Shown: positions 7,501-51,780 of the stretch, piece after piece
Numbering within the stretch: the first letter of the stretch is position 1
Layout: each line of letters starts with the position of its first letter
Assembly (NCBI GenBank): GCA_964196055.1
Contig: CAXMSF010000251.1
Location: 1,101-65,100 of the forward strand
Direction: 5' to 3'
DNA from: an uncultured Gammaproteobacteria bacterium
GTDB lineage: Bacteria > Myxococcota_A > UBA9160 > SMWR01
DNA length: 64,000 nt
Position numbers and translations under genes: made by a program
The notes under the pieces: model-generated
Told to the model about the DNA's origin: nothing
Database searches by the model: none
The model's input: only the letters and a program-made list of their open reading frames with translations

Positions 7501-7504
7501 GCCG

Positions 7505-9116: not shown

Positions 9117-9290
9117 GCGTTCGAACCCGAAACAGGGGGGCGGCATCGAACCGATCGTTGCGCAGCGGTTCCGAGCGACCTCGGCTATTTTCGCCGCGGC
9201 CGCGCGAGCTGAGGTGATGGGCCTCACGCTTCGGACCCGAATCACGACGTGTCGCTGTGATCATCCACGCGGACCCCGAGGTAATCGGAC

Positions 9291-10388: not shown

Positions 10389-10414
10389 ACCAATACAGCA
10401 AAGGGTGTGAGAAC

Positions 10415-12660: not shown

Positions 12661-13376
12661 TCGGCAACAAGCGGATCCTGGCGGTCTGCCCTGCGCGCGG
12701 CGGCAGCAAGGGCATCCCGCGGAAGAACCTGAAGACCTTCCGCGGCGTGCCGCTCGTCGCAATCGTGGGCCAGGTGGTCGCGGAGGTCCCCGAGATCGAC
12801 CGCGCGGTGGTGAGCACCGACGACGACGAAATCGCACGCGTGGCCGAGGAATCCGGACTTGCGGCGCCGTTCCGGCGGCCCGAGGCACTCTCCGGCGATC
12901 GCATCGGTGACCTCGAAGTTCTCACGAACGCGCTCGAAGAGATGGAGGCGATCGACGGCGTTCACTACGACATCGTGCTGATGCTCCAGCCCACCTCCCC
13001 GCTACGCCGCGTAGGGCACGTGCGCAACGCACTCGCGATGCTCGGGAAGGGCGGCTTCGACGCGGTCTGGACGGTGTCGGAGACCGATTCGAAGGAACAC
13101 CCGCTGAAACAGCTCACCGTCGACCGCGACAGCGGTCGGATGGACTTCTACGATGCCGACGGCGGGAAGATCATCGCGCGCCAACAGTTGACCCCCGTCT
13201 ACCACCGCAACGGAGTCGCGTACGCGATCTCGCGCAGCTGCCTGCTCGACCAGAAGAACATCAAGGGCGCAAACACCGGCGCCCTCGTGATCCCCGGCCA
13301 CATGGTCAGCATCGACACCCTCTGGGATCTCCAACTCGCCGAGTACATTGCCGAGCGAGAAGACCCGCGCCGCTGA
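12657..13376 (+). CDS. acylneuraminate cytidylyltransferase family (CMP-nonulosonate synthetase)
   Basis: ILAVCPARGGSKGIPRKNLKTFRGVPLV...MLQPTSPLR, the classical CMP-NeuAc/CMP-KDO synthetase family signature. ATGA overlap with the HAD gene. Confidence 0.8.
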   Translation: MIGNKRILAVCPARGGSKGIPRKNLKTFRGVPLVAIVGQVVAEVPEIDRAVVSTDDDEIARVAEESGLAAPFRRPEALSGDRIGDLEVLTNALEEMEAIDGVHYDIVLMLQPTSPLRRVGHVRNALAMLGKGGFDAVWTVSETDSKEHPLKQLTVDRDSGRMDFYDADGGKIIARQQLTPVYHRNGVAYAISRSCLLDQKNIKGANTGALVIPGHMVSIDTLWDLQLAEYIAEREDPRR

Positions 13377-22978: not shown

Positions 22979-24097
22979 CTAGCGGGCCGATGAGGGCAAG
23001 TCCGCTGCCTCTCCCGCGCCTGCTCGCGCCGCTTCGAATGCCGGGGTCGCGCGAGCGCTGAACGCGGTGCCCGCCTCGCGGACGATGAACAGCGCAGCCA
23101 GACCTTCGCGCTCGGCCAGAGAATAGCCCGCCTCGAAGCCGAGCACATTCAACGCGGTCGCCAGCGCATCGGCGTAGACGGCATCGCGGTGCAGCACGCT
23201 CACGGAGGCCAGCGCGTGCTCGATCGGGCGCGCGGTCCGTGGGTCGATGGTGTGTGAGTAGCGTCGTCCTCCGCTCTCATAGAAATTGCGGTAGTCGCCC
23301 GAGGTTGCGAGCGCGACATCGCGAAGCGGGAGGACATCGAAGGCGTCCCGCGCGCCCGCATCGGGCCGCTCGATCGCGACCCGCCAGGCGCCGCCGTCGA
23401 GCCGTTGACCGTGCGCTCGAATCTCGCCCCCCACCTCGACCAGGTGATCGCGGTAACCGCGTTGCGAGAGCGCCTCAGCGACGCGGTCGACCGCAAAGCC
23501 CTTCGCGATCGCCGAAAGGTCGCAAACGACGTCGCCGCGCGACTTACGGAGCGCTCCGCTCTGCACCTCGACGAGCCGATGCCCCACGCGCTCGCGCAGC
23601 CCTTCGAGCTCCTCGGGCGGCGGTGGGGCGGGAATGCGATCGCTCGCTCCGAATCCCCAGGCGGTCACGACCGGGCCGACCGTAACGTCGAAGGCGCCCC
23701 CCGAGAGCTCCGAAACTTCGCTTGCGATCCGGAACACCGCCAGAATCTCGGTCGACGCCGGGAACGGCTCGGTCGAGCCATGCGCGTTGAAACGCGACAG
23801 CTCCGATTCCGGCTGCCAGGTCGACATCGCTTCGTCGACCGCACGCAGCTCGGACTCGATCGCGCGCTTGATCTCGGCGCGCTCGGCTGCATCCAGATCG
23901 ACCACAGCCAGCTTGACCGACCAGCTCGTGCCCATGCTTTCGCCGCTGAATTCGGCTTGTGAGAGCGGGGGTGGCGCGCAGGCGAGTCGGTGGATCGAAG
24001 CCGCCAGCAACAGCAACAACACCAGCGGCAGCAGGACCTTTGCTCGCCCGCTGAGAGCGAGTCCCGATCGGCGCGGCGGTTCAGCCGCCGAAGTCAT
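22979..24097 (-). CDS. apbE: FAD:protein FMN transferase ApbE
   Basis: MGTSWSVKL..., [19 protein letters not shown] motifs of the ApbE family. Directly downstream of nqrF. Confidence 0.85.
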
Positions 24098-25307
24098 CGA
24101 AGAGGATGTTCTCCGGCTCGACTCCCAGGTCGGTCAGCATCTGGATCACCGCGTCGTTCATCATCGGCGGGCCGCAGATGTAGTACTCGCAGTCTTCGGG
24201 CGCGGGGTGGTCCTTCAAGTAGTTGTCGTACAACACCTGATGGATGAAGCCGGTCTGCCCGGTCCAATTGTCCTCTTCGAGCGGTTCGGACAGGGCGAGA
24301 TGCCACTCGAAGTTCTCGTTCTCTGCCGAGATCGCGTCGAAATCCTCGATGTAGAACGCTTCACGCAGGCTACGCGCGCCGTACCAGTAACTCGCCTTGC
24401 GTGTGCTGTGGAGCCGGCGGAACTGATCGAAGATATGCGAGCGCATCGGCGCCATGCCGGCGCCACCGCCGATGAAGATCATCTCGTTGTCGGTCGGCCG
24501 CGCAAAGAACTCGCCGAACGGGCCCGCGATCGTGACCTTGTCGCCGGGCTTCAGGTTGAAGATGTACGACGACATCACGCCCGGCGGCACGTCGGGCGTC
24601 CGCGGCGGCGGCGACGCGATCCGAACATTCAGCATGATGATGCCCTTCTCTTCCGGATAGTTAGCCATCGAATAGGCGCGCTCGACGCCCTCTTCCACTT
24701 TCGAGACGTAACGCCACTGGTTGAACTTGTCCCAGTCCTCGCGGTACTCGTCTTCGACCTCGAAGTCCTTGTAGTGGACCTCGTGCGGCGGGCAGGAGAT
24801 CTGGATGTAGCCGCCCGCCCGGAACGGAACCTCTTCGCCGGGGGGGAGTTCGAGCACCAGTTCCTTGATGAAGGTCGCCAGACCATTGTTCGAGCGGACG
24901 GTGCATTCCCATTTCTTGACGCTGAAGACCTCGGGCGGGATCTCGATCTTCATGTCCTGCTTGACCTTCACCTGGCATGCGAGGCGGCAACCTTCGCGGG
25001 CTTCGCCTCGCGTGACGTGTCCGGTCTCGGTCGGGAGCATCGCCCCGCCGCCTTCCACGACATTGACCTTGCAGACACCGCAACTGCCCTTGCCGCCACA
25101 GGCCGACGGGATGAATAGCTTGCTCGCCGCAAGGGTATTCAGCAGCGTGCCGCCGCTCTGGGCCGTGAGCGTGTGGTCGGGGTCGTCGTTGATGACGATC
25201 TGCACGTCACCGCTCGGCACGAGCCTGTCGCGCGCGAGCATCAACACCAGGACCAGCGCGAGGATAATTACCGTGAAACCGATCACGCCGAAGATAATCG
25301 TTACCAT
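24081..25307 (-). CDS. nqrF: Na+-translocating NADH:quinone oxidoreductase subunit F
   Basis: N-terminal TM, 2Fe-2S ferredoxin [19 protein letters not shown] domain RAYSMANYP...[11 protein letters not shown]. Confidence 0.95.
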
Positions 25308-25347
25308 GCCGGATCTACTCTCTAGTTCTCTGGTGACCGCGCGCGGT

Positions 25348-25959
25348 TCAGAGTTGGATTCCCGAGAAGGCCATGAACCCCAGCGACATCAGCCCGACGA
25401 GGATGAACGCGACGCCGAGCCCGCGCAGCGGCTCGGGAACATTGCTGTACTTGAGCTTCTCGCGGATCGCCGCGAGCGCAACGATCGCGAGCGCCCAGCC
25501 GATGCCGGAGCCGAGACCGAAGACCGTCGCTTCGCCGAGCGTGTAGTCGCGCTCGACCATGAACAGCGACGCTCCCAGAATCGCGCAGTTCACCGCGATC
25601 AGCGGCAGGAACACGCCCAGCGCGTTGTAGAGCTGGGGAACGTAGCGATCGAGCGCCATCTCGACGATCTGCACCGAGGCCGCGATCGTACCGATCAGGG
25701 TCAGAAAGGTGAGGAACGACAGATCGACGTTCGGCAGGCCCGCCCAGCCGAGCGAACCCGGCGCCAGCACATGGTTGTTCAGCAGTTGGTTCAGCGGGGT
25801 CGTGACGGTGAGAACGAAGGTGACCGCCAGACCGAGCCCCAGTGCGGTTTCGACCTTCTTCGAGCATGCCAGGAAGGAGCACATGCCCAGGAAGAAAGCC
25901 AGGGCCATGTTCTCAACGAAGATGGACTTCGTGGCCAGACTCAAATAGTGCTCCAACAC
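25348..25959 (-). CDS. nqrE: Na+-NQR subunit E
   Basis: [31 protein letters not shown], the characteristic NqrE N-terminus. Confidence 0.95.
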
Positions 25960-26584
25960 TGAAGTCTTCCTCCACTTGTTCGGGTTTGAAGCTGCGCACG
26001 ACCCAGATGAAGCCGCCGATCAGAAAGAATGCGGCCGGTGCCAGCAGCATCAGGCCGTTGGGGACGTACCAGCCGCCCTCGTTGACGGACTGCAGGATCG
26101 TGATGCCGAAGACCTTGCCCGAGCCGAAGAGCTCGCGCATGAAGGCCACCACCATCAGGACCAGCGCATAGCCGAAGCCGTTTCCGATTCCGTCGATGAA
26201 GGCGAGCTTCGGCGGATTCTGCATCGCGTAGGCCTCCGCGCGCCCCATCACGATGCAGTTGGTGATGATCAATCCCACGAAGACCGACAACTGCTTGCTG
26301 ATGTCGTAGACGAAGGCCTTGAGAATCTGATCCGTGATGATTACCAGCGATGCGATGATCGTGAGTTGCACGATGATCCGGATGCTCGCCGGGATGTAGT
26401 TGCGGAGCGCACTCACGGCCACATTCGACAGGGCCGTCACAGCGATCACCGCCACACTCATCACGAGCGCCGTCTCCATCTTCGTCGTCACGGCCAGCGC
26501 AGAGCAGATTCCGAGCACCTGTAGCCCGATGGGGTTGTTGTCGATGAGAGGGTCGAGGAACGCCTCTCGTTCTTTGCTCATCAT
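25913..26584 (-). CDS. nqrD: Na+-NQR subunit D
   Basis: [23 protein letters not shown]...[10 protein letters not shown]. The 3' end overlaps the nqrE start by 47 nt. Confidence 0.95.
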
Positions 26585-27360
26585 GTCCCCCGTTCGCTGC
26601 GCCGCTGCGCGAGATAAGGTGCGAAACCGTCTTCACCGAGCCAGAACGCCAGCAGATGGGTCACGCCGCGGCTCGTCAGGGTGGCTCCCGAGAGCCCGTC
26701 CACGTGGTAGGGATCCTGTTCGGGTGAGCCCGCGCTGCCTTTCTTCACGGCAATAGCCGGCTGCCAGTTCTCGTCGAAGGCCAATCGGCCCTTCCACAGG
26801 GCCTTCCAGCGCGGATTGTCGACCTCACCGCCGAGGCCGGGGGTTTCACCGTGCTGGTAGAAGGTAATGCCGCTGATGGTTCGGCCGTCGGGATCGAGTG
26901 CGAGAAAGCCATAGAGCGTCGACCACAAGCCCTTGCCCTCGATGGGCAGGATGATGGACCGCAGCACGCCATCCTCGATGACCTCGAAAATCTGCGCATT
27001 GTTCGGAATACGGGTCACCTTGGCCGCGTTGGGTGGTGCGAGTCGGCTCGTCGCCGGATCCGCGCTGGCCCTCTTCTGGTCGAAGGTCGCCGTGTCGACC
27101 CCCTCGACCGGGTTCCCGGTCGCGAGATCGATGATGCTCGGCCTGATGCTCTTCCCGAAGCGGCGTCGAACCTCGTCGGCCGGCAGCGACTCTCTCTCGC
27201 CCATCAGGCCCGCAACGACCAGCACCTTCTTCTGGATGTCGAGCGCCTTGTTGGCTTCCTGGCGATCCTTCAGGAGGACCGCCGAGCCCGCGACGAAGAC
27301 GGAACAGAACACGCAGACCGCTGCTGCGAACATCACGACGTAGCGCGCACTATGCTGCAT
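26581..27360 (-). CDS. nqrC: Na+-NQR subunit C
   Basis: N-terminal TM. The FMN-attachment context [12 protein letters not shown] is typical of NqrC. Confidence 0.9.
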
Positions 27361-28567
27361 TCCGGGCCAGCCTCCGGTTGATATTTCCCTGCACGACGAA
27401 ATGATCGATCAGCGGCGCAAACATGTTCATGAACAGGATCGCGAGCATCATGCCTTCGGGGTAGGCGGGGTTCACCACCCGAATCAGTATCACGAGCGCC
27501 CCGATCCCGAGCCCGTACCAGAAGCGTCCGATATTCGTGAACGCCGAGCTGACCGGGTCGGTGGCCATGAAGACCGCACCGAAGGCCCAGCCGCCGAGAA
27601 CCATGTGCCAGTAGAACGGCACCGCGAACATCGGATTCGACGCCGAGCCGGCCCAGTTCAGCAGGTTCGCCAGTGCAACCGTGCCGAAGACGATACCGAC
27701 GATCGTCTGCCAGGCCGCGACCCGCGTGATCAACAGGACCGCGAGACCGAGCAGGCAGCAGACGGCGGAGGTCTCACCCATCGAGCCGGGAATCCAGCCG
27801 TAGAAGGCCTTGCTCCAACTGGCGTGATCGAGCGCGCCCACAGTCCCGGCCGCCTGCGCAAGCCAGGTCGCGCCGGAGAAACCGTCGACCGCCTGGAAGT
27901 CCGCCGCGATCCACGGGGCGTCGCCGCTCATGTAGGCCGGGTAGGCGAAGAACAGGAAGACGCGCGCGGTGAGCGCGGGGTTGAGGAAGTTCATCCCGGT
28001 GCCGCCGAAGACCTCCTTGGCGAAGACCAGGCCGAATACCATGCCGAGGGCGACCTGCCACAGCGGGATCGTCGGCGGCAGCGTCAGCGGCAGCAACATG
28101 CCCGTGACAAGGAAGCCCTCGTTCACCTCGTGGCCGCGGATGATCGCTCCGCCGACTTCGACGAGCGTACCGGCCACGAAGACGGTGATGAGGACCGGCA
28201 GGAAGTAGAGAGCGCCGTGGATGATGCAATAGAAGGGGTTGGTCGCGTCGAAGCCGAGGCCGAGCAGCTGATAGAGTCCCATCCGCCAATCGTCGAGCGG
28301 CAGGGCTCCGTGATCGATCGCGTACTGAGCCTGATAGCCGGTGTTGTAGATCGCGAACAGGATGCAGGGCACCAACGCGATCACGACCGTGATCATCATG
28401 CGCTTCAGGTCGAGCCCGTCGCGCACGTGCGAGGCGGTCTTGGTGACGTCAGCGGGCGTGAACATCGCGGTGTCGTGCGCTTCCCAGAGCGGATAGAGCT
28501 TCTCGAGCTTCCCACCCTTTTCGAAAAGCGGCGCGACACCATCATGCAAGTCGCGGAGGAACTTCAT
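27350..28567 (-). CDS. nqrB: Na+-NQR subunit B
   Basis: Polytopic protein. The SGATWL flavinylation-type motif and overall NqrB/RnfD-like sequence. Confidence 0.95.
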   Translation of the reverse strand: MKFLRDLHDGVAPLFEKGGKLEKLYPLWEAHDTAMFTPADVTKTASHVRDGLDLKRMMITVVIALVPCILFAIYNTGYQAQYAIDHGALPLDDWRMGLYQLLGLGFDATNPFYCIIHGALYFLPVLITVFVAGTLVEVGGAIIRGHEVNEGFLVTGMLLPLTLPPTIPLWQVALGMVFGLVFAKEVFGGTGMNFLNPALTARVFLFFAYPAYMSGDAPWIAADFQAVDGFSGATWLAQAAGTVGALDHASWSKAFYGWIPGSMGETSAVCCLLGLAVLLITRVAAWQTIVGIVFGTVALANLLNWAGSASNPMFAVPFYWHMVLGGWAFGAVFMATDPVSSAFTNIGRFWYGLGIGALVILIRVVNPAYPEGMMLAILFMNMFAPLIDHFVVQGNINRRLARNAA

Positions 28568-29943
28568 CAGCCTTCCTTCTCGATCATCGCGAGATTCCTG
28601 CGGAGAACCGGCCCGTAATCCGTCTTGCCGGAGCAGACGAAGGTGCAGAGCGCGAGGTCTTCTTCATCGAGTTCGAGCACACCGAGTTTCTCGGCCTGCT
28701 CGATGTCGCCGACGAGCAGCGAGCGCAGCAGGAAGGTCGGCAGGATGTCCATCGGCATCACGCGTTCGAAGGTCCCGATCGGAACCATCGCGCGCGGCGA
28801 CCCGTTGGTGGTCGTCGTGAAATCGAAGCTCTTCACGCCGAACAGGCGCGAGAGGTAGATCGGAATCGTCGAGAAGCTCTTCATGCCGGGCGAGAGCCAG
28901 CCGAGGAAGATGCGCTCGTGGCCTTCGCGAAGCAGACTGATCTGGCGATCGAAACGGCCCATGTAGCCGAATTCCTCGCCCATGGCCTTCTTGCCCGACA
29001 GCACCGAGCCGGAAATGCAGCGGGTATCGTCCGCGGCGTCGTCAGCCACCAATTCCGCGACTGCGCAACCCAGGCGCGTCACGATCAGACGCGAATCGCT
29101 GCACGCCGGACCGGCGATCGAGATCACACGCTCGACGTCGAGCCGTCCCGTCGCGAACAAGCTACCGATCGCGATCACGTCCTGGTAACCGAGGTGCCAG
29201 ACGACCTTTTCGCGACTCACCGCGTCGAGCCGGTGGATGTGCAACCCGGCCGTGCCGGCCGGATGCGGCCCGCTGAATTCCTCGACCGTGACCGGTGCGG
29301 TGACTCCGCTCGCGACCCCGCTGCCCTCGCGAATGCACAGATAGGTCGACCCGTCGGTGAGCTTGGCGACGATTTCGAGCCCGCGCTGAAAATCGTCGCG
29401 ACGCTTCTCGATCACGACCTCCGGGAGTGGCGCAAGCGGGTTGGTATCGGTGGCGGTGACGAAGATCGAATGCGCCGTCGTCTCGGGGCTCGGCACTTTG
29501 CTGAACGGGCGCGTGCGCAGCGCGGTCCATTGTCCCGATTCGACCAGTAGTGCGACGATGTCCTCGCGGGACAGGTCCGACACGTCGCGCCCCGAGAATC
29601 GTTCGAAGGCCACGCACTCGCCCTGCTCTTCGCGGCCGCTGCGCTCGCCCTCCGAGAGTTCGATCACGATCGACTGGAGCGCGCGACGTGCACCGCGATG
29701 AATCGCGACCACCTTGCCGGCTCCCGGTGCCGTATGGAGCACACCGGGCGTCTTGCGGTCCGCGAACAGCACTTGACCGCGTTTCACGATGTCGTCGACC
29801 TGGACCTGCATACCCGGCTTCACCCCCGGGAAGTCGTCCGCCATCACGGCGACGCGGCTGACATCCTCGCGACCACGGATGATCTGCATCGGAGCGCCGG
29901 AAATCGGGAGGTCCAGGCCTTTCGTTATTCGATGGATTGCCAT
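28567..29943 (-). CDS. nqrA: Na+-NQR subunit A
   Basis: MAIHRITKGLDLPISGAP..., the canonical NqrA N-terminus. 458 aa. Confidence 0.95.
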   Translation of the reverse strand: MAIHRITKGLDLPISGAPMQIIRGREDVSRVAVMADDFPGVKPGMQVQVDDIVKRGQVLFADRKTPGVLHTAPGAGKVVAIHRGARRALQSIVIELSEGERSGREEQGECVAFERFSGRDVSDLSREDIVALLVESGQWTALRTRPFSKVPSPETTAHSIFVTATDTNPLAPLPEVVIEKRRDDFQRGLEIVAKLTDGSTYLCIREGSGVASGVTAPVTVEEFSGPHPAGTAGLHIHRLDAVSREKVVWHLGYQDVIAIGSLFATGRLDVERVISIAGPACSDSRLIVTRLGCAVAELVADDAADDTRCISGSVLSGKKAMGEEFGYMGRFDRQISLLREGHERIFLGWLSPGMKSFSTIPIYLSRLFGVKSFDFTTTTNGSPRAMVPIGTFERVMPMDILPTFLLRSLLVGDIEQAEKLGVLELDEEDLALCTFVCSGKTDYGPVLRRNLAMIEKEG

Positions 29944-30439
29944 GGGTCGATTGTCGTTTCCATCTCACCGCGCGAGGCGCGCGGGCTTGGTTTCAGATTG
30001 TTCTCAGCGGCTGCCGTGTGCCGTCCGAGGCCGAAGCGAGGGCCCTGATCGTGAACTTGCGAAAACGTCGGGGCCCTGGTCGATGCTGAGTGCCCGTGGG
30101 GGGACGGAGGCGGGACAGACAATAGGAGCCCCGCGCCTCCGGAACAACGCCGACACCAGAAGAAAATTCGCAGTTTGGCCCCGAAAGCCCGGGTGTTTCG
30201 GGAAGGATCTCTCCGGCTGACCGCTCGCGGCGGCGAGGCACCGTGCAGTCCACTCCGCGCGTGGAGTCCCCAGGGGCGATGCGCCTGGTTGCCCCGCAGG
30301 CCCAGAATGCCCCGCCCAAGCGATTAATTGTTGCACTCTAAATGAACGGAGGCGTACGCTCGGTCGCGATACTGGAGTTCTACGACGAGGGCGCTGCGAC
30401 CTCACTGTGGGTGGGGAAGGAAGGGCCCGAGGAGGCAAC

Positions 30440-37365: not shown

Positions 37366-38136
37366 TCACGAGTAGAGTTCTTCTGTCTCCGGAATGTGGC
37401 CGAAGATCTCGAGTGAAAGCTCGACGAGTTCCTTGTCCTCGAACAGCCGGCGATAGCTCGGCTCGTCCCTGGACAGCTTCCAGCGCTCGAACAGGCCCAT
37501 GCGATCGGCATTCTTGACCTTCCGCTTTTCGAACGTGCTACCGCCGCCTTCGCGCGTCGTCCGGTTCCAATGCCTGCTCCTGTAGGAAACACCCAGCCGG
37601 TCGGCGAGCTCCCGGCGGTACTCTTCGTCCATCAACCACTTGTTGTAGTTGACCGCGATCATGTTGGGCAGGATCTTGGTTCGCCCGGTGAACTCGGCCG
37701 CATGGTTCTTCCACAGGTCGATCGTCCGCTGCGGGTCGGTAAGAAGCGTTTCGCGAATCCGGCGCCCTTCACCGTGGTTCAGGCGGCTCGAGAAGAGGTT
37801 GAAGGGATCGCGCATGCACAGCAGATAATGGGTGTCGAGGGCGTGCCCCACGTGTACCTCGTGATCCTGGATCAACCGACTCGGGCTGCTGATCTCCTCC
37901 CGCACCGGCTGATCTTCGTAGTTGACCATGAACAACTCGAGATCACCGCTCGTGTCGCCGTCGGCGATGTCCTTCTTGTTCGTGCCGAATTCATCCCGGT
38001 ACGACTTGCGGTTGTTGCAGAAAGTCTTCGGTGCGCCGTACATGCGGTAGACGAAGTGCACGATGGCATGCTGCCCGGAGCGCCGCATCGCAAAGACGAT
38101 CAATTGGTTCTTGGTGGTGCGCATGTCGAACGGCAA
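37366..38136 (-). CDS. sulfotransferase-like P-loop protein
   Basis: LIVFAMRRSGQHAIV (5'-PSB-like loop) and LLCMRDPFNLFSSRL (3'-PB-like RDP...S). Visibly more AT-rich than the flanking DNA. Confidence 0.5.
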   Translation of the reverse strand: MPFDMRTTKNQLIVFAMRRSGQHAIVHFVYRMYGAPKTFCNNRKSYRDEFGTNKKDIADGDTSGDLELFMVNYEDQPVREEISSPSRLIQDHEVHVGHALDTHYLLCMRDPFNLFSSRLNHGEGRRIRETLLTDPQRTIDLWKNHAAEFTGRTKILPNMIAVNYNKWLMDEEYRRELADRLGVSYRSRHWNRTTREGGGSTFEKRKVKNADRMGLFERWKLSRDEPSYRRLFEDKELVELSLEIFGHIPETEELYS

Positions 38137-38341: not shown

Positions 38342-39124
38342 ATGGGAAAGATGAAAACTGCCTTTTCGATCCCCGCAAACGCCGATTCGTGTTGGGCGCA
38401 TCTGACCCATAGCGCCGCCCGAACCATCCAGATCCAAGACGAGTATGAGCGAGTCGCCAACCTGGGTTGCGGTACGGGATGGGCCATCGCGAGTCTCGCG
38501 GCCAGACATCCCGCTACGAAATTGGTAGGTGTCGATCCCGCCGCGCAAATGTGCGTTCAGGCCGTGCAACGAACGGAGTCTCTTCCCAACTGTCACGATT
38601 CTCGAAGGATCGTTCGAGGCGATTCCCCTCGAGAGCGCTTCGCTCGATTATCTGTACAGCACGCTTTCCTTCCACTGGTGCACGGACCTGGACAAGGCGG
38701 TGGCCGAGCTGAAGCGCGTACCCAAGCCGGGTGGAGAAATGGATCTGATGTTCATCGGCCGGGATAATGGCCGAGAATTCATCCAAGTCACGACGCCTCT
38801 CTTCCTGTCGTACATGGGGCCCAAGCTTCTTCTGGAATCCGCCCGACTCCGAAAGCAGCTGGAGCGAAACGCCGCGGAGGATCTGTTCCGGCAGGCGTTC
38901 CCGGACCGAATCCTGGAGGTGAGCGAGCGCTACGAGACCCACTACGACAGCCTCGAAGGACACTGGGGCTGGGGTGGGTGCGGATCGAGGGTCACTTCAT
39001 TCAGATCCCGCCGGCGAAGCAGCTGGAGTGCGACGCGAAGGTGAAGGCGGCGGTCGCGAGCCTGGAAAACGCTCGCGGCATCCCCCACACGACGCACCTG
39101 CTGCACGTGAAGTTGCGCAGGTGA
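38342..39124 (+). pseudogene. class I SAM-dependent methyltransferase interrupted by two compensating frameshifts
   Basis: The first frame gives VANLGCGTGWAIASLAARHPATKLVGVDPAAQM...ESLPN. After about 38591 the sense continues in the +1 frame: VTILEGSFEAIPLESASLDYLYSTLSFHWCTDLDKAVAELKRVPKPGGEMDLMF...EGHWGW. After about 38970 (G-rich run) it returns to the first frame: WVRIEGHFIQIPPAKQ...HVKLRR*. Confidence 0.6.
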
Positions 39125-39378
39125 CCCTGGGGTCGGCTATCGCCCCGAATGCGGTTCCAGCCTTCGCGCGAGTTCGTGCCCCACGAGCCGAGCGACCCGG
39201 CTACCCGATAGCGCCCAGGGTTCGTGGAGCGCTCGCATGAGAGCTCGCTCAGACGTCGAGCGAAGGCCCCAGAACCTCCTCAGATGATCGCCCCACGCCC
39301 CGGGGGGATCCCTGCGTTCGATTCCCAGCGGAGCAAGTTGACTTGTCGAGCTGCTAAGTAGAATTGAAAACTATTGCC

Positions 39379-39407
39379 TTGACGGAACTAGTCGATGGTG
39401 GGAAAAT
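39379..39407 (+). promoter_or_regulatory. candidate sigma70-type promoter (TTGACG-17 nt-GAAAAT) in an AT-rich patch
   Basis: Read directly. It lies 65 nt upstream of ATG 39472, and the surrounding 39340-39471 is the most AT-rich stretch of the window. Confidence 0.3.
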
Positions 39408-39471
39408 ACCTCACATAATACGCGCCAAGGCGGTGCGTGTTGCAAAATTAGAAAAATAGGGAAAATAGAAA

Positions 39472-40533
39472 ATGTCGACCTACTTCGTTCGAATCCTCCG
39501 CGGCGGCACCCGAGCTGCGGCTGCACTCGCGCTTCTCGCACTCCCCCTGGCCGCCAACGCGGCGGTCGAAATCGATCCCGGGTATACCGAGAGCAACCTC
39601 ATGGCCGACGGCTACAACACCCTCGAAAAGTGCGACGCGACTGACACCGAAGCCTGCGCGGTTGCGGCCGACGTCGCCGACAACGAGATCGGTGCACTCG
39701 TCAACGCCCAGATCCTTGGCGCCGGAGCCGCGAGCGGTGAGGTCTACACGGACTTCAGCATCAGCGGCGACAGCGAGGCCGTTCTGCTTGGCTCCTCTGT
39801 GGCGGCCCGGGTCGATGTCGACGGACTCCTCACGTCCCTCGCGGTCGATGCGATAGCGTCGGTCGATGTCTCGCTTCATGTCATGGACATGACTGCCGGC
39901 GTGTTGGTAGGCGCCCAGACGGTGGCTAACCACACGATCGTGAACGGGTTGTTGCCCGTCTCGCACTCGAACGCCGTGGTGATTCCCGTCGCGCTGACGC
40001 GCGGCCACGATTATCGAATCAGCCTGATCATCGCGGCGGAGGCCGTGGGCAGCGCCGTGGAACTGGGCGGCGGCAGCGCGCAGTCCGCCTTCATCAATAC
40101 GGCGAGATGGATGGGCTTGTCGGTGACCGCGGGACAGGATCCCTTCGGTGCGATCGCCGATCTCGAAGACCGCGTCTCGGACGTGGAGGACGACGTGGCA
40201 TGGCTGATTCCTGTGGTCCGGCAGCTGGTCGCTGATCTGGATGCCCTCGAGGCGCTCGTGGATCGGATCGCGAACGCGCTTCGGGATCTGCAGCAGACCG
40301 TCGCGGAGCTTCGCGAAGACTTCGACAATCACACCCACACCTACCTCACCGGGAAGGGCGTCGGACACAACAACACAGAGGCGACGACGACCTTGCCGAT
40401 GGATGGAGCTTCGATTCAACCGGTGACCACCCCGGGAAACAGCGGGAACACCAACCCGAACGCATCGTCATCCGAGTCGAGTGCATCGGAGAAATCGTGC
40501 AGCAGGAAAGACAGGCGGCGTAATCGCTGCTAG
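39472..40533 (+). CDS. secreted hypothetical protein with C-terminal coiled coil
   Basis: Signal peptide ...ALPLAANA|AVE. Acidic heptad-like region DLEDRVSDVEDDVAWL...LDALEALVDRIANALRDLQQTVAELREDF, then NHTHTYLTGKGVGHNNTEA, a Ser/Asn/Thr-rich tail and a basic Cys-containing end (KSCSRKDRRRNRC). Confidence 0.6.
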   Translation: MSTYFVRILRGGTRAAAALALLALPLAANAAVEIDPGYTESNLMADGYNTLEKCDATDTEACAVAADVADNEIGALVNAQILGAGAASGEVYTDFSISGDSEAVLLGSSVAARVDVDGLLTSLAVDAIASVDVSLHVMDMTAGVLVGAQTVANHTIVNGLLPVSHSNAVVIPVALTRGHDYRISLIIAAEAVGSAVELGGGSAQSAFINTARWMGLSVTAGQDPFGAIADLEDRVSDVEDDVAWLIPVVRQLVADLDALEALVDRIANALRDLQQTVAELREDFDNHTHTYLTGKGVGHNNTEATTTLPMDGASIQPVTTPGNSGNTNPNASSSESSASEKSCSRKDRRRNRC

Positions 40534-40545
40534 CGAGCGAGATAC

Positions 40546-40581
40546 CGCCGCCGCCGGGGCTCGTCAGCCCCGGCGGCGGCG
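40546..40581. terminator. 16-bp perfect GC stem (CGCCGCCGCCGGGGCT / AGCCCCGGCGGCGGCG) with a 4-nt loop between convergent ORFs
   Basis: Read directly. Confidence 0.5.
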
Positions 40582-40861
40582 AGCAACGCGCCACCCCGTC
40601 GCACGACGAGGGGGAACCTGGAAGAGACCGCGCGCGGCCTGCCGGACCTCCGGGTCGCTCAGGCGAAAGACCGCGCGATCGAGTGCGTAGTGGAGGAAGG
40701 CGGTCGCGAAGCCGATGGCGACGAGCGCCTGTACCCCACGCGAAATTCGACAGCGCATCCGCAACCGTCGGCATGACCTTTTTGGCGAAGCCCGGTTCGC
40801 CCTGGTCGAGTGCTTCGATTTCCATGATCGGGAGCAGCAGCGCCGAGAGCGCCACGAGCAC
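40564..40861 (-). pseudogene. 3' fragment of an integral-membrane-protein gene, with a frameshift in a G4 run
   Basis: One frame gives (A)ALSLVLVALSALLLPIMEIEALDQGEPGFAKKVMPTVADALSNFAWG. After the CCCC run at 40734-40737 the sense continues in another frame (VQALVAIGFATAFLHYALDRAVFRLSDPEVRQAARGL...*). Upstream the frame is closed by stops inside the 94-bp repeat, so the 5' part of the gene is missing. Confidence 0.45.
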
Positions 40862-40872
40862 GAGGCTGAGTG

Positions 40873-40966
40873 CCGCCTACGGTCCAGTCTCAGCCGCTTA
40901 CCCCATGGGAACTTGACACTTCGTACCTTATCGGAAATCGATCGCCCGCTTCTTTGTCCTACCCGT
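40873..40966. repeat. 94-bp repeat, copy 1
   Basis: CCGCCTACGGTCCAGTCTCAGCCGCTTACCCCATGGGAACTTGACACTTCGTACCTTATCGGAAATCGATCGCCCGCTTCTTTGTCCTACCCGT. Identical to 42659-42752 except for 2 substitutions. Confidence 0.9.
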
Positions 40967-41033
40967 TGAAGGACCTTTCCCAGGCGCACTACTTGAGCGC
41001 CGCGCAGATGATGGACCTCGAGGCCGGCGCTGC

Positions 41034-41492
41034 CTCGAGCGCCGCCAGATCGAACTGGTGGCGGCGCGCGTCTCCGCCGGCCGCGAGTGCTTCTACTGAA
41101 CCAGCTCCCACGCAATGCTGCTCCGTGCGAGCGGCGAGGTCTCCGGAAACGCGGTGGACGTCTCGGCCATCACCGACGACGCCGCCGCCCAGGCGAGCGG
41201 CATCGCCCACGCCGAAGCGCTGCTGGCCTTCGCCGCGGCGGCGGCCCGACGCGACGACGCCGGCCTCACGGCTGCACGAGCACGCCTGCTGGACGAGACG
41301 GGAGCGGAGGCGTTGGTGGGCGCCGCCGCGGTGGTAGGAAACTTCGAGCGAATGACCCGCATCGCCGACTCGACGGGCATCCCCCTCGACACGCCGACTG
41401 GCTCCCGAGATCGTCTGACTGGTTCGGGAAGCAGGGCTTCGGATGAGCCCCCGATGGAACAGTGCGAAGCGGCACACCCAGGGTTAGAGTGA
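41034..41492 (+). pseudogene. AhpD/carboxymuconolactone-decarboxylase-like ORF lacking a normal start, with an in-frame TGA at the second Cys of the CxxCxxxH motif (nonsense mutation or selenocysteine codon)
   Basis: Same-frame translation: LERRQIELVAARVSAGRECFY-TGA(41097-41099)-TSSHAMLLRASGEVS...AAVVGNFERMTRIADSTGIPLD. No in-frame ATG/GTG/TTG occurs between the upstream stop (40914) and 41058. Confidence 0.5.
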
Positions 41493-41499
41493 TGAAAAA

Positions 41500-42624
41500 A
41501 TGGATCCCACCTTCTCGGTCTTTGCGCGGGCGTTCCGAATCGAAGCGCCCTTCATGAACGAATGGCTGGAGTACCACGTTGGCATCGGTTTCTCGACCTT
41601 TTACATCGTCGTAGCGGGGCGGGGAGAGGACACGGACGAGGATCACGAATTTCTTCTCCAGCGCATCGCTCCCGAGTTCATACCGCGGGTAAGGTTGTTC
41701 AAGGCGCCGGACTGCATCCGCGTGCCCGAAGTTTCCGAACAGTTGAACCTCCGCAGCATCTGGGATGAAGACGAGCGGGTCCTGTTCATCGATATCGACG
41801 AGTTCCTGGTGCTGCAACGCCACGGCACCATTCAGGAATTCTGGGAACAGATGCCCGGGCGCAACGACGGGTTCTCTTTCGAATGGGTGAACTATCCATC
41901 GGACGATTGGGGATACGATGGGCTCAAGAGCCATATGCGCAGCAAATCACCCCTGGTGGGTGTCAACCGCAAGGGTATGGCCCGGATTGGATCGCTCGAA
42001 AAAATCGGAAATCATCGCCACTCGTACATCCCAGGGGCCTTCTGCCGGAAGGTAGAGATTTCCGACGCGTTCTTGTGTCACCTGTGCAACCGTGGACTCG
42101 CCGACACGATTTGCAGGATCCTCTGCGGATCGTTCAAATCGAACGATACCGACATCGCGTTGATGAAAGAGTTGATACGAGGCGCTGCCCCCCCGGCGAA
42201 TCTTCCTCGACGTCTGATCCTGATGCACGCACAATTATTGATGGCCGCGCAGAGCAACCATCGAGTCGCGCTCGCGAAACATCTGCCTGAGCTGCGCTAC
42301 GGATGCGACGACGATGCCCTGTCCGAACTAATCGGACGAGCGCTCGGTGCTGGAACCAATAAAGACGAGATCGAGCTGACGCGATGCGCGATGAACATCA
42401 CGAAGAAATACCGGGTGAAATTCGACATCTCCCCCAGAGAGATCCATGACCTGGGCGGCTTCGTGACGATCTGCAACAGACTGCGCGTCGTCGAACGAAA
42501 TGCGATCGGGGATGGTGAAGGAGAGCACGTCTGCTACACGCTGGCCGCCGTCCCGGAAGACGGAGGCAAAGGCCTTCTGCGGCAGTGGCGGCCCTGGAGC
42601 AGGTGGCTCCGGCGACGCATGTGA
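41500..42624 (+). CDS. glycosyltransferase family 92 (DUF23)-like protein
   Basis: FARAFRIEAPFMNEWLEYHVGIGFSTFYIV...VLFIDIDEFLVL, the characteristic GT92/Glyco_tranf_2_4 N-terminal pattern. More AT-rich than the backbone. Confidence 0.6.
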   Translation: MDPTFSVFARAFRIEAPFMNEWLEYHVGIGFSTFYIVVAGRGEDTDEDHEFLLQRIAPEFIPRVRLFKAPDCIRVPEVSEQLNLRSIWDEDERVLFIDIDEFLVLQRHGTIQEFWEQMPGRNDGFSFEWVNYPSDDWGYDGLKSHMRSKSPLVGVNRKGMARIGSLEKIGNHRHSYIPGAFCRKVEISDAFLCHLCNRGLADTICRILCGSFKSNDTDIALMKELIRGAAPPANLPRRLILMHAQLLMAAQSNHRVALAKHLPELRYGCDDDALSELIGRALGAGTNKDEIELTRCAMNITKKYRVKFDISPREIHDLGGFVTICNRLRVVERNAIGDGEGEHVCYTLAAVPEDGGKGLLRQWRPWSRWLRRRM

Positions 42625-42658
42625 CGCGAGCTGTTCAGCCAACAGCGGATTGAAATTT

Positions 42659-42752
42659 CCGCCTACGGTCCAGTCTCAGCCGCTTACCCCATGGGAATTT
42701 GACACTTCGTACCTTATCGGACATCGATCGCCCGCTTCTTTGTCCTACCCGT
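42659..42752. repeat. 94-bp repeat, copy 2
   Basis: Same orientation as copy 1. Differences: C->T (GGGAAC/GGGAAT) and A->C (CGGAAA/CGGACA). Confidence 0.9.
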
Positions 42753-42769
42753 CTCCCCCTACCGATAAA

Positions 42770-43003
42770 TGGCGTGTCGCGAAACAGTACGAGGTCGAAT
42801 TCGTCGATTCCCTGGAGGAAATCCGCGAGATCGGCGGTTTCGTCGCGATGTGCAACCGGCTGCGGGGCGCTCGCAGAAACGTGGTTAGAACGGGTGACGG
42901 GGAGCGCGCCCGCTACACCGTTGCAGCGGTTCCCCGCGAGACTGTGGATCAAACCGAGCCCCCGCGCTCTCGCTGGCGGCGATGGTTTCAGCGAAGAAGC
43001 TGA
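42770..43003 (+). pseudogene. C-terminal relic (~75 aa) of a second GT92-like paralog
   Basis: KQYEVEFVDSLEEIREIGGFVAMCNRLRGARRNVVRTGDGERARYTVAAVPRE...RWRRWFQRRS aligns with the C-terminus of 41500..42624 (KKYRVKFDISPREIHDLGGFVTICNRLRVVERNAIGDGEGEHVCYTLAAVPED...RWLRRRM). Nothing corresponds to the first ~300 aa. Confidence 0.6.
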
Positions 43004-43015
43004 CGGAATCCGGCG

Positions 43016-44410
43016 TCAGCGAGTGATGCGGAAGATGTGATCCGCGAGATTCTCCACCTTCAGGTCGTGAAACCTGTCGAGCTGCTCACCGAAGCGGCGG
43101 ATCCGGATGCCCAGTTCTTCGACGCTGGTCCCCGGAAATCGGTGGTCGTGATAAGCGGAGGAGTGGCGATTGCCGGGGATCGCGGCGGCATCGCGTTTGG
43201 CGACGGTTCGTTTACGCAGTTTCTTCCGCCCGTCCCAATACTGGTAGAGGGAATCACTGCGGAACTTCCGGTCGGCGAAGCCGGCGGCATTCAGTGCGTC
43301 GATCATCCGATCGGACGCGAGCGGCCCTTCCAAGGACGCGACGTGATGCTGGAGGATCTCGCTACGAATGGCCGCGCGCTCCTGCCTGCGCGGATCGCCG
43401 CCGACGATGTCGCGTACCGCGGAGATCAACTCTTCGACGCTATATGCCTGCTCGCTCAGCGAGTCGGGAAACTCGAAATCGAACCCCTTGTGCGACACCG
43501 GCCGGAAGGCGATCGCCGGGCGATCGAGGACGGCGGCCTCCACCGCGGTCGTGCAACCGTTGTGAACGAGGGCGCCGCAGGCGATCAGCCAGGGGATCAC
43601 ACTCTTCTCGCTGACGACCCGCACGTTCGTGTGATCCCCCGCGGCCTCCTTCCAGGCTGCGTGATCTTCGGCAGGATGCGGGCGCACGACGATCGTGTGC
43701 TCGGGAAATGCGGCTGCGATGGCGGGCACCAGCGCGCGGAAGTGGCCGAACAGCGCCGCCTTGTGCTCGGCAAGGCCCCGTGCGAACTCGGGCTCCATGC
43801 CGCGAGTGTTGTCGCCGAGAATCAACTCGCCACCCGACTCGGATGCGGGCTGCAACAGATTCAGGCTCTCTGCGAATGCGTTGACGAAGCCGAAATTGCA
43901 GTTGATCAGGATGAAGTCGCCGTAGTGGCGCCGGATCTCGCCGACTTCTTCATCGAAGTAGCCGCGCACATCGGGTCGCAACAGATCGACGCGTGGATTC
44001 CCGGTGACGGCCACCGGTGTGTCGCCGATGCCGGGGAACTCGCGGAGGACCTTCGCGTCATCCTCCCCCCAGGCGAAGATCCGCGAGACGAAGGCGATCG
44101 ACTCCTCGGCCAGGCGCCTGCGGTAGTAGTGCTCGCGGGGAAATCGTACCAGCGCCTCTTCGTCCCAGGCCACGACCTGGTGCCCGAGACCACGCAGGAT
44201 GCGGAACATCCTTTTCGCGATCGACCGCAACCCCTTGGCCAGGAAGACGCCCCGCGGAAGCTTTGCCATGGCGTTGTTGAGCGGCCCACGCGAACCGAGC
44301 ACCGCAGCGTAGCCGTGCTCTGCGGCGACGCAGGCCAGGAAGAGCTTCGCGTCCAGCTCTCGAACCTGGCTTTCGACCGGAATGAAGATCGTCGTCTGCT
44401 TTGCTGCCAT
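43016..44410 (-). CDS. 'surface carbohydrate biosynthesis protein'-type paralog 3
   Basis: MAAKQTTIFIPVESQVRELDAKLFLACVAAEHGY..., VTGNPRVDLLRPD, RPHPAE, HNGCTTAVEA, RFPGTSVEELGIRIRRFG. Confidence 0.7.
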   Translation of the reverse strand: MAAKQTTIFIPVESQVRELDAKLFLACVAAEHGYAAVLGSRGPLNNAMAKLPRGVFLAKGLRSIAKRMFRILRGLGHQVVAWDEEALVRFPREHYYRRRLAEESIAFVSRIFAWGEDDAKVLREFPGIGDTPVAVTGNPRVDLLRPDVRGYFDEEVGEIRRHYGDFILINCNFGFVNAFAESLNLLQPASESGGELILGDNTRGMEPEFARGLAEHKAALFGHFRALVPAIAAAFPEHTIVVRPHPAEDHAAWKEAAGDHTNVRVVSEKSVIPWLIACGALVHNGCTTAVEAAVLDRPAIAFRPVSHKGFDFEFPDSLSEQAYSVEELISAVRDIVGGDPRRQERAAIRSEILQHHVASLEGPLASDRMIDALNAAGFADRKFRSDSLYQYWDGRKKLRKRTVAKRDAAAIPGNRHSSAYHDHRFPGTSVEELGIRIRRFGEQLDRFHDLKVENLADHIFRITR

Positions 44411-50083: not shown

Positions 50084-51463
50084 TCAATCCGCCTCGATTC
50101 GATAGACATGCTCGGCCACCGGTTCGACCCCGACTCCGCCGAAGCGACCGAGGCAACCATCGAGACGAGCGATCAGGTCGCGCAGATCGGCTTCGGCGAC
50201 GCCCGGAAAACGCTTCTCGTGGCGTTCGCCCTTGCCCAGGTGGTGAGTCGGCGATGCGACGGCATGGCCCTTCTTTCGGCTCCGACGGCGCGCGGCCCGG
50301 CCTCCCCGCAGCCGGTCGAATAGCGAAGCCCGGGGGAGCTCCTTGCGCTCGGATTCCTGGTTTGCCACCACGTCGACGATTCGGTCGGAGGCAAACGGGC
50401 CGCTCAGGCTCTCGAGGTATTCGTCGATCGGCCTCCGCTCGGCCGGAGGCGGTGCGCACGGCAACTCGCCGCGGGCAGCCCGCTCGAGCATGGCGCGCAT
50501 TTCGTCGAGGCTCACGCATTCGTGGCCGAGCGAATTCGGAAGATCGGAATCAAAAGCGTCGGACTTCACGGGTCGGTAGCTGACGACCGGCCGGCCGAGT
50601 GCATACGCTTCGATCGCGGTCGTGCAGCCGTTGTGGACGAGAACGTCGGCAGCGAGAAGCCAGGGAATCACATTGCCGTCGTGAACGACCTCGACGTTGT
50701 CGTACCCCGCGGCGGCGGCGACCCAGGGCTCCGGCCGTTCGTTGGGATGCGGACGAACGACGAGAGTTCGATTCGGCAAGCTCGAAGCGACATCGGGAAT
50801 CATGGCTCGAAACGCGTCGAAGAGGGCACGTTTGTGCTCGAGATAGCCGGGCGAGAGGCCGCCGCCTGCTCCGCCCGGGGCACCCCGAGCCGGAGCAGGC
50901 GAATCCGACGCCTCGAGCTGGTAACGAAATCCGTTGACCTTCGAGAAGTTCGTGTTCAGCAGCGCAAACCTGCCGTGGCGATCGCGAAGACGACGCACGT
51001 CGTCGTCGAAGAACCCGCGCAGCTCGGGTCGCAGCAGATCGATGCGCGGGTGCCCCGTGGTGAAAATCGGAGTTGCGTCGAAACCGGGAAATTTCCGAAA
51101 CATCTCCGCATTGTCGCGGCCCCACGCGAACAGGAACGACACTTCCGCCAGCGCCTCCGACGACATGCGCCGTCGGAAATAGTGCTCGGCCGAAGGATAG
51201 ACGAGGGCCTCTTCGTCCCAGACGCCGATCTCGTGACCCAGCTTTCGCAGGATCCGGAACATCCGCGTGCTCCGGCGCGTCATGCTCTTCGACAGGTAGG
51301 TTCCGCGCGGAAAGCGCGTGATGTAATCATCGACCTGCGTGCGATGCCCGAGAATCGAGACGAAACCGCGTTGCGCGGCGACACAAGCCAGCAACAACTT
51401 GGAATCGAATTCACGAACCTGGATTTCGACGGGAATGATCAGCGTGGGTTTCGATGCCGACAC
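50084..51463 (-). CDS. 'surface carbohydrate biosynthesis protein'-type paralog 4
   Basis: KPTLIIPVEIQVREFDSKLLLACVAAQRGF..., TTGHPRIDLLRPE, RPHPNE, HNGCTTAIEA, RFPGVAEADLRDLIARLD. Start uncertain: GTG 51463 by alignment with the paralogs, while the ORF-track ATG 51589 adds 42 unrelated aa that overlap a thiolase relic. Confidence 0.65.
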   Translation of the reverse strand: MSASKPTLIIPVEIQVREFDSKLLLACVAAQRGFVSILGHRTQVDDYITRFPRGTYLSKSMTRRSTRMFRILRKLGHEIGVWDEEALVYPSAEHYFRRRMSSEALAEVSFLFAWGRDNAEMFRKFPGFDATPIFTTGHPRIDLLRPELRGFFDDDVRRLRDRHGRFALLNTNFSKVNGFRYQLEASDSPAPARGAPGGAGGGLSPGYLEHKRALFDAFRAMIPDVASSLPNRTLVVRPHPNERPEPWVAAAAGYDNVEVVHDGNVIPWLLAADVLVHNGCTTAIEAYALGRPVVSYRPVKSDAFDSDLPNSLGHECVSLDEMRAMLERAARGELPCAPPPAERRPIDEYLESLSGPFASDRIVDVVANQESERKELPRASLFDRLRGGRAARRRSRKKGHAVASPTHHLGKGERHEKRFPGVAEADLRDLIARLDGCLGRFGGVGVEPVAEHVYRIEAD

Positions 51464-51578
51464 AGCAGATGTTTGTAACAGCCGCACCCCGTTTCCGCCA
51501 TCGAACACCCGCTCACGACACCCGTGGCCAACAAAGGCATGTCCGTCCGGATCGAATTCGGCCGGACTCCCGACCGTG

Positions 51579-51780
51579 ATGCGCGACAAGCCGCTCTCGC
51601 CCTCGGACTACCTCGCGCGCCCGATACTCGTCGATCCGCTGCGAGTCGAGGACTGCTGTCTGATCTCGGACGGCGGCGCCGCCTGCATCATGACGACCCC
51701 CGAACGCGCACGGGATCTGCGCAAACCGCCGGTGCTGGTCGAAGGTGTGGGGATGGGGATGGTCGCGCAGCTGAATCAGG
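51579..51780 (+). pseudogene. internal relic (~65 aa) of an SCP-x/lipid-transfer-type thiolase gene
   Basis: MRDKPLSPSDYLARPILVDPLRVEDCCLISDGGAACIMTTPERARDLRKPPVLVEGVGMG matches the mid-region pattern of thiolase-like lipid-transfer proteins. No N- or C-terminal parts are present. Confidence 0.55.

Follow-up and report, generated by a model that had tools for sequence, protein, structure and literature searches.

How does a short sequence that encodes nothing come to stand twice, nearly unchanged, beside broken genes in a surface-polysaccharide gene cluster? This question is raised by a 94-bp direct repeat, here called R, in the assembly GCA_964196055.1 of an uncultured bacterium. The DNA analyzed (the window) is a stretch of 64,000 nucleotides of contig CAXMSF010000251.1 (positions 1,101 to 65,100), to which all coordinates refer unless another contig is named. 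Copy 1 of the repeat (R1) lies at 40873–40966 and copy 2 (R2) at 42659–42752, both on the plus strand, with an intact glycosyltransferase gene between them. Comparison with related organisms indicates that both copies lie within a patchwork of gene pieces that took the place of the middle of a resident glycosyltransferase gene. R looks like an instance of the scars that recombination leaves where a gene in a polysaccharide locus is replaced, and not like a new mobile element or RNA, and the pair is read here, tentatively, as the footprint of a single crossover.

The repeat and the replaced glycosyltransferase gene

R1 and R2 differ at two of 94 positions (C/T at R position 40 and A/C at R position 63). 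Their identity ends sharply on either side of each copy, and the four sequences that directly adjoin them are mutually unrelated (...GAGTG/TGAAG... around R1 and ...AATTT/CTCCC... around R2), with no direct duplication between them. Three non-overlapping sub-patterns of R, each allowed up to three mismatches, matched R1 and R2 only in the 64 kb, with about zero matches expected by chance, and a whole-window repeat search detected no other repeat family with identity comparable to R. This agrees with the initial annotation, in which the repeat, its two mismatches and its unrelated flanks had been described. That annotation had also allowed that R might be unique to these two sites and simply part of a local segmental duplication with homologous flanks. 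Further copies were indeed not found (see below), and no homology extends into the flanks of R1 and R2 in the same register, as it would in a local segmental or tandem duplication. The sole related flanks around R are the 3′ ends of two GT92-type genes, which lie on opposite sides of R2 and share 43% protein identity.

The two-copy arrangement itself could in principle be an assembly artefact, a wrong path taken through a repeat node, given that the contigs derive from metagenome assemblies and that short-k assemblies break at R. Such an error is very unlikely, close to negligible, because separate contigs from metagenome-assembled genomes (MAGs) agree and the breaks in the Logan contigs fall as predicted. 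The neighboring 464-aa protein occurs with exactly the same sequence on two other MAG contigs (L001, from GCA_964196265.1, and L002, from GCA_964196235.1) and on four short Logan contigs. Both MAG contigs hold R1 and R2 with window-like flanks and copy-specific bases at 99.5–99.8% overall identity (divergence from the window of about 0.2% for L001 and about 0.5% for L002), so the window and two other per-sample assemblies share the order and the copy-specific single-nucleotide polymorphisms (SNPs). R2 is identical in L001, L002, L003 and L004 where covered; in L002, R1 lacks 3 nt and shows the base of R2 at position 63. A distance of 23 nt between the two SNPs means that k-mers of 55 or longer always connect a copy with its own flanks, and the default largest k of MEGAHIT, 141, exceeds the length of R. 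The k=31 Logan contigs break within R at the predicted graph branch points: L004 stops at R position 10, and L023 spans R1 position 34 to R2 position 30, so that contig ends at R positions 10 and 30 are the break points expected from two copies. For at least some of the samples (runs ERR13301387 and ERR13301390), the source was Arctic surface sediment of the East Siberian Sea, and each metagenome was assembled on its own with MEGAHIT (PMC11655862).

The history of the locus can be approached through relatives of the gene between the repeats. This gene (GT92new, 41500–42624, plus strand) encodes an intact GT92/GT2_4-type glycosyltransferase of 374 aa that matches Pfam Glyco_tranf_2_4 and, below threshold, Glyco_transf_92. 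A protein search with GT92new recovered three full-length relatives with 52–57% identity, one on a JGI metagenome contig (L007) and two on Logan contigs (L009 and L010). These contigs represent related organisms, and the genes that the window has in common with L007 and L009 are 81–83% identical in DNA. Both L007 and L009 carry, in this order, a 256-aa gene (minus strand), an intact GT92 gene and a TIGR04396 gene (minus strand), and the short contig L010 carries the end of the 256-aa gene followed by the intact GT92 gene. Gene order in these relatives indicates an ancestral arrangement of 256-aa gene, intact resident GT92-type gene and TIGR04396 gene. All of 38373 to about 42766, including the segment bracketed by the repeats, is absent from the three contigs. 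Only the first ~8 and the last ~78 codons of the resident gene remain in the window; thus, as judged from alignment with the relatives, about 870 bp of it was replaced by a patchwork of 4.39 kb (38373–42766), whose right end lies ~14 nt past R2. R had been noticed initially as sitting at gene-truncation junctions, and it does sit at real rearrangement junctions.

What is left of the resident gene can be recognized on both sides of the patchwork. The left stump (38350–38372, plus strand) consists of the ATG and ~7 codons and aligns with the gene starts in L007 and L009, with homology stopping at 38371/38372. The right stump (42767–43003, plus strand), the GT92-like 3′ end that had been seen to the right of copy 2, comprises the last ~78 codons and the stop codon and has 75% nucleotide identity to L007 1346–1573. 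Its product is 64% identical to residues 298–372 of the resident-type protein P0002 vs 43% to GT92new. From 43001 onward the window is syntenic with L007 at 83% nucleotide identity, and the conserved right neighbor that serves as a synteny anchor is the TIGR04396 gene for surface carbohydrate biosynthesis (43016–44410, minus strand; NCBIfam TIGR04396, 349 bits).

The segment bracketed by the repeats holds one gene scrap and one intact gene. The scrap (40967–41492, plus strand), listed at first as an AhpD-like open reading frame (ORF) without a start codon, is an internal piece of a selenoprotein gene of the AhpD_rel_CFYUT family, as alignment with the full-length relatives P0176 and P0200 bears out. 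Its frame from 40968, with ...ECFY-TGA-TSSH..., matches NCBIfam NF041238 at positions 214–340 of 357 with 171 bits when the TGA is read as Cys. This in-frame TGA (41097–41099) is the selenocysteine codon of the family and falls exactly within the C-F-Y-U-T motif. About 200 N-terminal residues are gone and the conserved C-terminal tail is also missing. On the left, the scrap reaches within about 10 nt of R1, with its PFP motif aligned at 40974–40982. GT92new is 57% identical to P0002, and its closest relative, P0005 on locus L008, shares 74% protein identity and 82% DNA identity with it. A 34-nt spacer (42625–42658, plus strand) separates the stop codon of GT92new from R2 and shows no homology to what follows the related gene in L008. 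Two side observations concern the selenoprotein. A 7-bp stem with a CGUGC loop lies ~17 nt downstream of the TGA and could be a selenocysteine insertion sequence (SECIS) hairpin, with a fold not better than that of shuffled sequences. In the public protein library, the annotation of most AhpD_rel_CFYUT homologues begins only at the Met that follows the TGA, and the family is therefore widely mis-split by gene callers.

To the left of R1, a small hydrophobic ORF or gene fragment (40564–40872, minus strand) adjoins the repeat. Its GC content by codon position (0.68/0.42/0.79) is the pattern of real genes in this genome and supports coding, and its frame is closed by a TAG at 40877–40879, 5–7 nt inside R. 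No significant family match and no detectable homologues were found for it. The ORF had been called the 3′ fragment of a membrane-protein gene: the coding signal and the stop inside R stand, and its truncation to the left of R1 is plausible but unproven. A 1-nt indel at 40734 decides its state. The C is present in the window and in L002, where the ORF is frameshifted, and absent in L001, where a continuous frame of ~100 codons results. The repaired translation gave only a non-significant match to the TrbC/VirB2 pilin family (E 0.026). A candidate N-terminal AhpD_rel fragment on the plus strand at the same place (TFLAKPGSPWS/TFIAEPGSWWS, E 0.013 in a tiny search space) was rejected because codon-position GC clearly favors the minus-strand ORF.

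Composition, motifs and distribution of R

R is compositionally foreign and non-coding. Its GC content is 56% vs 65% for the window, its plus strand is 64% pyrimidine, the dinucleotide TA occurs five times vs 1.1 expected, and no codon periodicity is present. The motif CYTAYS occurs four times, at R positions 4, 25, 55 and 86, with spacings of 21, 30 and 31 nt, which are roughly two, three and three helical turns. The entire 64-kb plus strand contains 38 such motifs, nine of them in or beside R, and the window average is 0.056 per 94 nt. Four motifs were reached in only 9 of 20,000 shuffles of R, in a test that is post hoc and an enrichment that is large. A fifth motif, CCTACC, was found by motif scan in the 14 nt of filler to the right of R2 (42753–42766, plus strand), after which homology to the resident GT92 gene restarts at about 42767–42776. 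This filler may be a continuation of the R element in copy 2: given the fifth CCTACC, copy 2 is possibly longer and copy 1 possibly cut at position 94. R also contains a perfect TTGACA hexamer.

Structural hallmarks of transposons or RNAs are lacking. R has no terminal inverted repeats (its ends match at 7/15 positions by eye with one of them reverse-complemented), no inverted repeat occurs within or between the copies, and no target-site duplications lie beside R1 or R2. The absence of terminal inverted repeats and of strong structure, the pyrimidine-rich plus strand and the four motifs all bear out what had first been read from the letters. Rfam searches with R gave no match at gathering thresholds and none inside R at E up to 10, and a tRNA/tmRNA scan of the window found no tRNA and no tRNA-like feature in R. 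Folded as RNA, both strands of R have a poorer folding energy than shuffled sequence (z +1.3 to +2.3); as DNA with a 10-nt flank on each side, both strands fold no better than shuffles (z –1.1 to +1.6). Neither a sigma-70-like promoter nor an intrinsic terminator consensus was found in 40400–43100.

Two possible origins of R from neighboring sequence were considered and discarded. As a decayed piece of the AhpD_rel gene, R offers the resemblances RTLSEIDRP/RALSLIPRA, VP-x15-PFP and LDTSYL/LESHYL, which fall in three plus-strand frames and are mutually exclusive; tblastn stayed at noise level (E of 10 or more), and residues encoded by R gave no extension of the NF041238 match. A 6+5-nt resemblance of R (TCGATCGCCCGC) to the left patchwork junction (TCGATCCCCGC) was set aside as well, since such 11-mers recur throughout the GC-rich window.

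No further copy of R was found in the window or in the public collections searched. BLASTN against plasmid and phage records, exact-pattern scans of 2.9 million viral contigs with three sub-patterns of R, a pattern search of species-representative genomes (one per GTDB species) and a search of JGI metagenomes with two R patterns all returned none. Low-stringency blastn and tblastx across the window and more than 20 fetched loci likewise gave no further copy, and when peptides from the three open reading frames of R were searched against 5.8 billion predicted proteins, none of these proved to contain R-encoded sequence. Genes for integrase, transposase or reverse transcriptase were found neither by Pfam searches on the larger ORFs of the 64 kb nor in the precomputed annotation of the MAG contigs.

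Several known systems resemble the R pair in part. Campbell-type integration leaves attL/attR direct repeats, also around decayed islets without an integrase that resemble cis-mobilizable elements (CIME-like islets), and R1 and R2 are likewise near-identical direct repeats, from which DNA could be excised, around accessory-gene DNA that relatives (L007, L009 and L010) lack. Unlike such repeats, the R pair comes with no integrase gene and with no tRNA or conserved gene end as target, and the repeat is 94 bp of orphan non-coding DNA; moreover, the bracketed segment is part of a larger 4.4-kb replacement, and no empty site with a single R was seen. Translocatable units and pseudo-compound transposons of the IS26 type share with R the direct orientation, the adjoining truncated genes, the lack of a target duplication and the unit of one repeat plus cargo. 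R, in contrast, is 94 bp long, encodes nothing, and has neither terminal inverted repeats nor a cognate transposase in sight. In integron cassettes, including integrase-less clusters, an attC site of ~60–140 bp lies downstream of a single promoter-less gene, and chromosomal arrays can have near-identical sites. R differs from attC in having no inverted core sites (R″-L″ ... L′-R′) and no foldable bottom-strand hairpin. Set against the GTTRRRY core, the R boundaries read ...CCCGT|TGAAGG and ...CCCGT|CTCCCC, so that the bases after GT are not conserved, and a RYYYAAC partner is missing. The R "cassette" also contains a gene scrap, there is no intI among the screened ORFs, and two copies form no array.

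R does not match a miniature inverted-repeat transposable element (MITE) or other insertion-sequence derivative, in that terminal inverted repeats and target-site duplications are absent; of dispersed copies, the 64 kb holds two and the public collections searched gave none. The template and variable repeats of a diversity-generating retroelement differ from R in that the mismatches here (C/T and A/C) are not confined to adenines, and no reverse transcriptase was found among the screened ORFs. In Neisseria, intergenic mosaic elements and "minimal mobile elements" are short non-coding repeat blocks where alternative genes are swapped between conserved neighbors, which is the setting of R. The neisserial mosaic repeats occur in large numbers throughout the genome and have 20-bp inverted repeats at their ends, whereas R is known from two copies and has no inverted repeats.

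A proposed single crossover at R and its alternatives

The origin of the pair that is tentatively favored, at a confidence somewhat short of even, is a single crossover at R that would have inserted one R together with the selenoprotein scrap and GT92new. R would then be a short non-coding DNA module that serves as a crossover site in the surface-polysaccharide gene cluster. One R would have stood at the right edge of the patchwork beside the 3′ remnant of the resident gene and was probably ~14 nt longer, with the fifth motif. A second R would have arrived on incoming DNA, joined to the selenoprotein scrap and to an intact, different GT92-type gene. Incoming and chromosomal R would have recombined in a single reciprocal crossover, either by a RecA-type route via the 94-bp homology or by some enzyme that binds the phased CYTAYS motifs. 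For a circular or circularized unit of 1,786 bp, such a crossover would leave R on both sides of the insert, as is seen. A single crossover is favored because a unit of repeat plus cargo lies between direct repeats and because the outer repeat is only ~14 nt from the edge of the replaced block. It also explains why the flanks are unrelated and the edges sharp, and why the cargo gene is intact. The R2 base at position 63 of R1 in L002 is compatible with exchange between the copies, and simple mutation explains it equally well.

Several points weigh against this reading. Neither a third copy of R nor an empty or intermediate state (membrane ORF–R–GT92 stump) nor a circle was found, and we therefore infer the crossover from topology alone. 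No integrase, transposase or other recombinase appears among the Pfam-screened ORFs in the 64 kb. A pre-existing R in two unrelated contexts is needed and left unexplained, and a circular 1.8-kb intermediate that carries a gene scrap is ad hoc. In addition, on L008 (GCA_044343285.1, contig JAZHCI010964942.1, 1–903), the relative of GT92new, which is interrupted by an in-frame TGA, is followed directly after its own stop codon by a 3′ piece of a gene resembling the 256-aa gene of the window (37366–38136), with no R. This is a second, independent patchwork junction in the same GT92 family; thus, patchwork junctions in this family form without R.

The main alternatives make R either the end of a mobile element or a by-product of repair. 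R could be a terminal remnant of ~100 nt, such as the end of an insertion sequence or transposon with phased transposase-binding sites, or a tiny non-autonomous derivative of one; the truncated genes would then reflect adjacent deletions or one-ended events, and the pair with its cargo would approximate an IS26-type translocatable unit. Both copies begin at exactly the same base although their left flanks are unrelated, truncated genes adjoin them, and the foreign composition without coding signal and the perfect TTGACA hexamer would suit such an end. The four or five phased motifs would suit it too, as would a copy 2 that runs on to the fifth and a copy 1 cut at position 94. This origin is nonetheless rather unlikely, since R shows none of the terminal inverted repeats, target-site duplications and subterminal hairpins of such ends, no transposase gene is present among the screened ORFs, and neither the window nor the plasmid and phage records, viral contigs, species-representative genomes and JGI metagenomes hold another copy. 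R-encoded peptides occur in no protein of the 5.8-billion-sequence database, and it would take a coincidence for two independent truncations to leave almost identical stretches of ~100 nt. A non-autonomous mobile element, proposed in the initial annotation, is in particular not borne out as a classical transposon, for lack of terminal inverted repeats and target duplications. R may instead be an orphan scrap in a patchwork made by repeated illegitimate recombination; repair of the junction between GT92new and the stump would have drawn 94 nt of filler from a template 1.8 kb upstream, by templated insertion or template switching. The stretch 38373–42766 is a mosaic of fragments of about 100–1,300 bp, several of them broken or scrap-like, the related locus L008 has a similar scrap junction without R, the only two known copies lie 1.8 kb apart, and no recombinase gene is nearby. 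Such copying is likewise judged unlikely, because both copied edges coincide, within a few nt, with pre-existing junctions of copy 1, which a random copy would hardly do: the minus-strand ORF closes 5–7 nt inside R, and the AhpD_rel-like PFP begins within ~10 nt of its right edge. The composition and motif content of R are also unlike those of random genomic sequence. Moreover, since the copies differ by 2.1%, above the divergence between strains (about 0.2% for L001 and 0.5% for L002), any duplication was not recent.

A functional role for R itself, as a cis-element or small RNA (for instance a structured transcript, or a module with promoter or operator function) whose duplication would reflect regulation of the glycosyltransferase gene, would agree with copies upstream and downstream of the cargo, with the TTGACA hexamer and with the repeated motifs as possible operator sites. 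It is highly improbable in view of the lack of any Rfam family even at E up to 10, RNA folding worse than that of shuffles on both strands (z +1.3 to +2.3), the absence of sigma-70-like promoter or intrinsic terminator patterns in 40400–43100, and the 3-nt deletion and substitution tolerated by copy 1 in L002. The missing Rfam match and the poor folding likewise leave the earlier suggestion of a small structured RNA without support. The suggestion of a recombination site or scar of a cassette-exchange system fares differently in its two parts. A scar fits, and the pair brackets an intact replacement GT92 gene. A dedicated system is not sustained, with only two copies known, no recombinase in the screened ORFs and a junction on L008 without R. 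Improbable as well, although somewhat less so than a regulatory role, is a reading in which R would be the recognition site of an undescribed trans-acting recombinase that binds four or five phased CYTAYS motifs and moves single glycosyltransferase genes in and out of surface-polysaccharide loci, integron-like and with neither a hairpin site nor a linked integrase.

Returning to the single crossover, its product would be open to further change. Because the cargo is bracketed by direct repeats that are 98% identical, loss or amplification of GT92new by ordinary homologous recombination is possible. Deletion of the 1.7-kb segment by recombination between R1 and R2, which had been raised at the outset, is mechanistically plausible. 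The only intact GT92-type gene at this position could be lost or amplified in this way.

Other pieces of the patchwork and the wider locus

From left to right, the patchwork consists of a methyltransferase pseudogene, the 353-aa gene, a GC-rich hairpin, the minus-strand ORF, R1, the selenoprotein scrap, GT92new, R2 and the filler. Its first piece is a pseudogene for an S-adenosylmethionine (SAM)-dependent methyltransferase (38373–39044, plus strand), which is fused to the left GT92 stump and carries a frameshift near 38580. The frameshift-repaired translation matches Methyltransf_11 and Methyltransf_25 at E about 1e-19, and the unrepaired ORF matches in its C-terminal half only. The methyltransferase gene continues the frame of the 8 codons with which the destroyed GT92 gene starts; it is missing from L007, L009 and L010, and L002 shares the frameshift.

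The next piece is an intact gene for a 353-aa coiled-coil protein (39472–40533, plus strand), described as an Lpp-like lipoprotein in some source annotations and without a Pfam family. Its homologues (58–67% identity) occur in unrelated contexts in other metagenomes. These contexts, examined for a native setting of the membrane ORF beside R1, differ from one another, and none contains a homologue of that ORF. Upstream of the gene, 39240–39470 is unusually AT-rich (about 55–59% GC, with runs such as AAAATTAGAAAAATAGGGAAAATAGAAA) and is probably the gene's own promoter and leader, carried into the patchwork with it. Within the gene, 39583–39716 differs between the window and L002 by 20 substitutions in 134 nt, and the flanking kilobases show only isolated substitutions; by this comparison, the N-terminal part of the coiled-coil protein contains a patch, 39583–39716, that is hypervariable or has been recombined. 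A perfect 15-bp GC-rich hairpin, GCCGCCGCCGGGGCT-CGTC-AGCCCCGGCGGCGGC (40547–40580, read from the sequence), lies between the 353-aa gene and the minus-strand ORF, which are convergent.

Beyond the patchwork, the window is rich in genes for surface glycans. Its genes include at least three of GT92/GT2_4 type, and the sulfotransferase genes number three or more. Diverged TIGR04396 paralogues at 6136–9116, 43016–44410 and 50084–51607 form direct and inverted repeats of 100–126 nt with 64–75% identity. A search of genome collections with the TIGR04396 protein gave relatives at 28–37% identity only, the closest two of them in alphaproteobacterial MAGs. Context genes at 9285–13376 and 24081–29964 include a NeuB-type nonulosonic-acid synthase with a cupin domain and a cytidylyltransferase upstream of a glycan-modification cluster, with an Nqr operon (Na+-translocating NADH:quinone reductase) nearby.

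The main useful result lies in the states before and after a gene replacement, which are reconstructed by comparison with three relatives, rather than in R itself. A swapped glycosyltransferase is an expected kind of event, and would be important only if R turned out to be where a dedicated recombination system acts; toward such a system the pattern of CYTAYS motifs points here, and nothing beyond it. If the reading given here is true, the locus is a clear natural example of a marine-sediment bacterium swapping a surface-glycan glycosyltransferase for a diverged paralogue. The repeats around the new gene would then make it easy to lose or to amplify, which bears on variation of the surface sugars.

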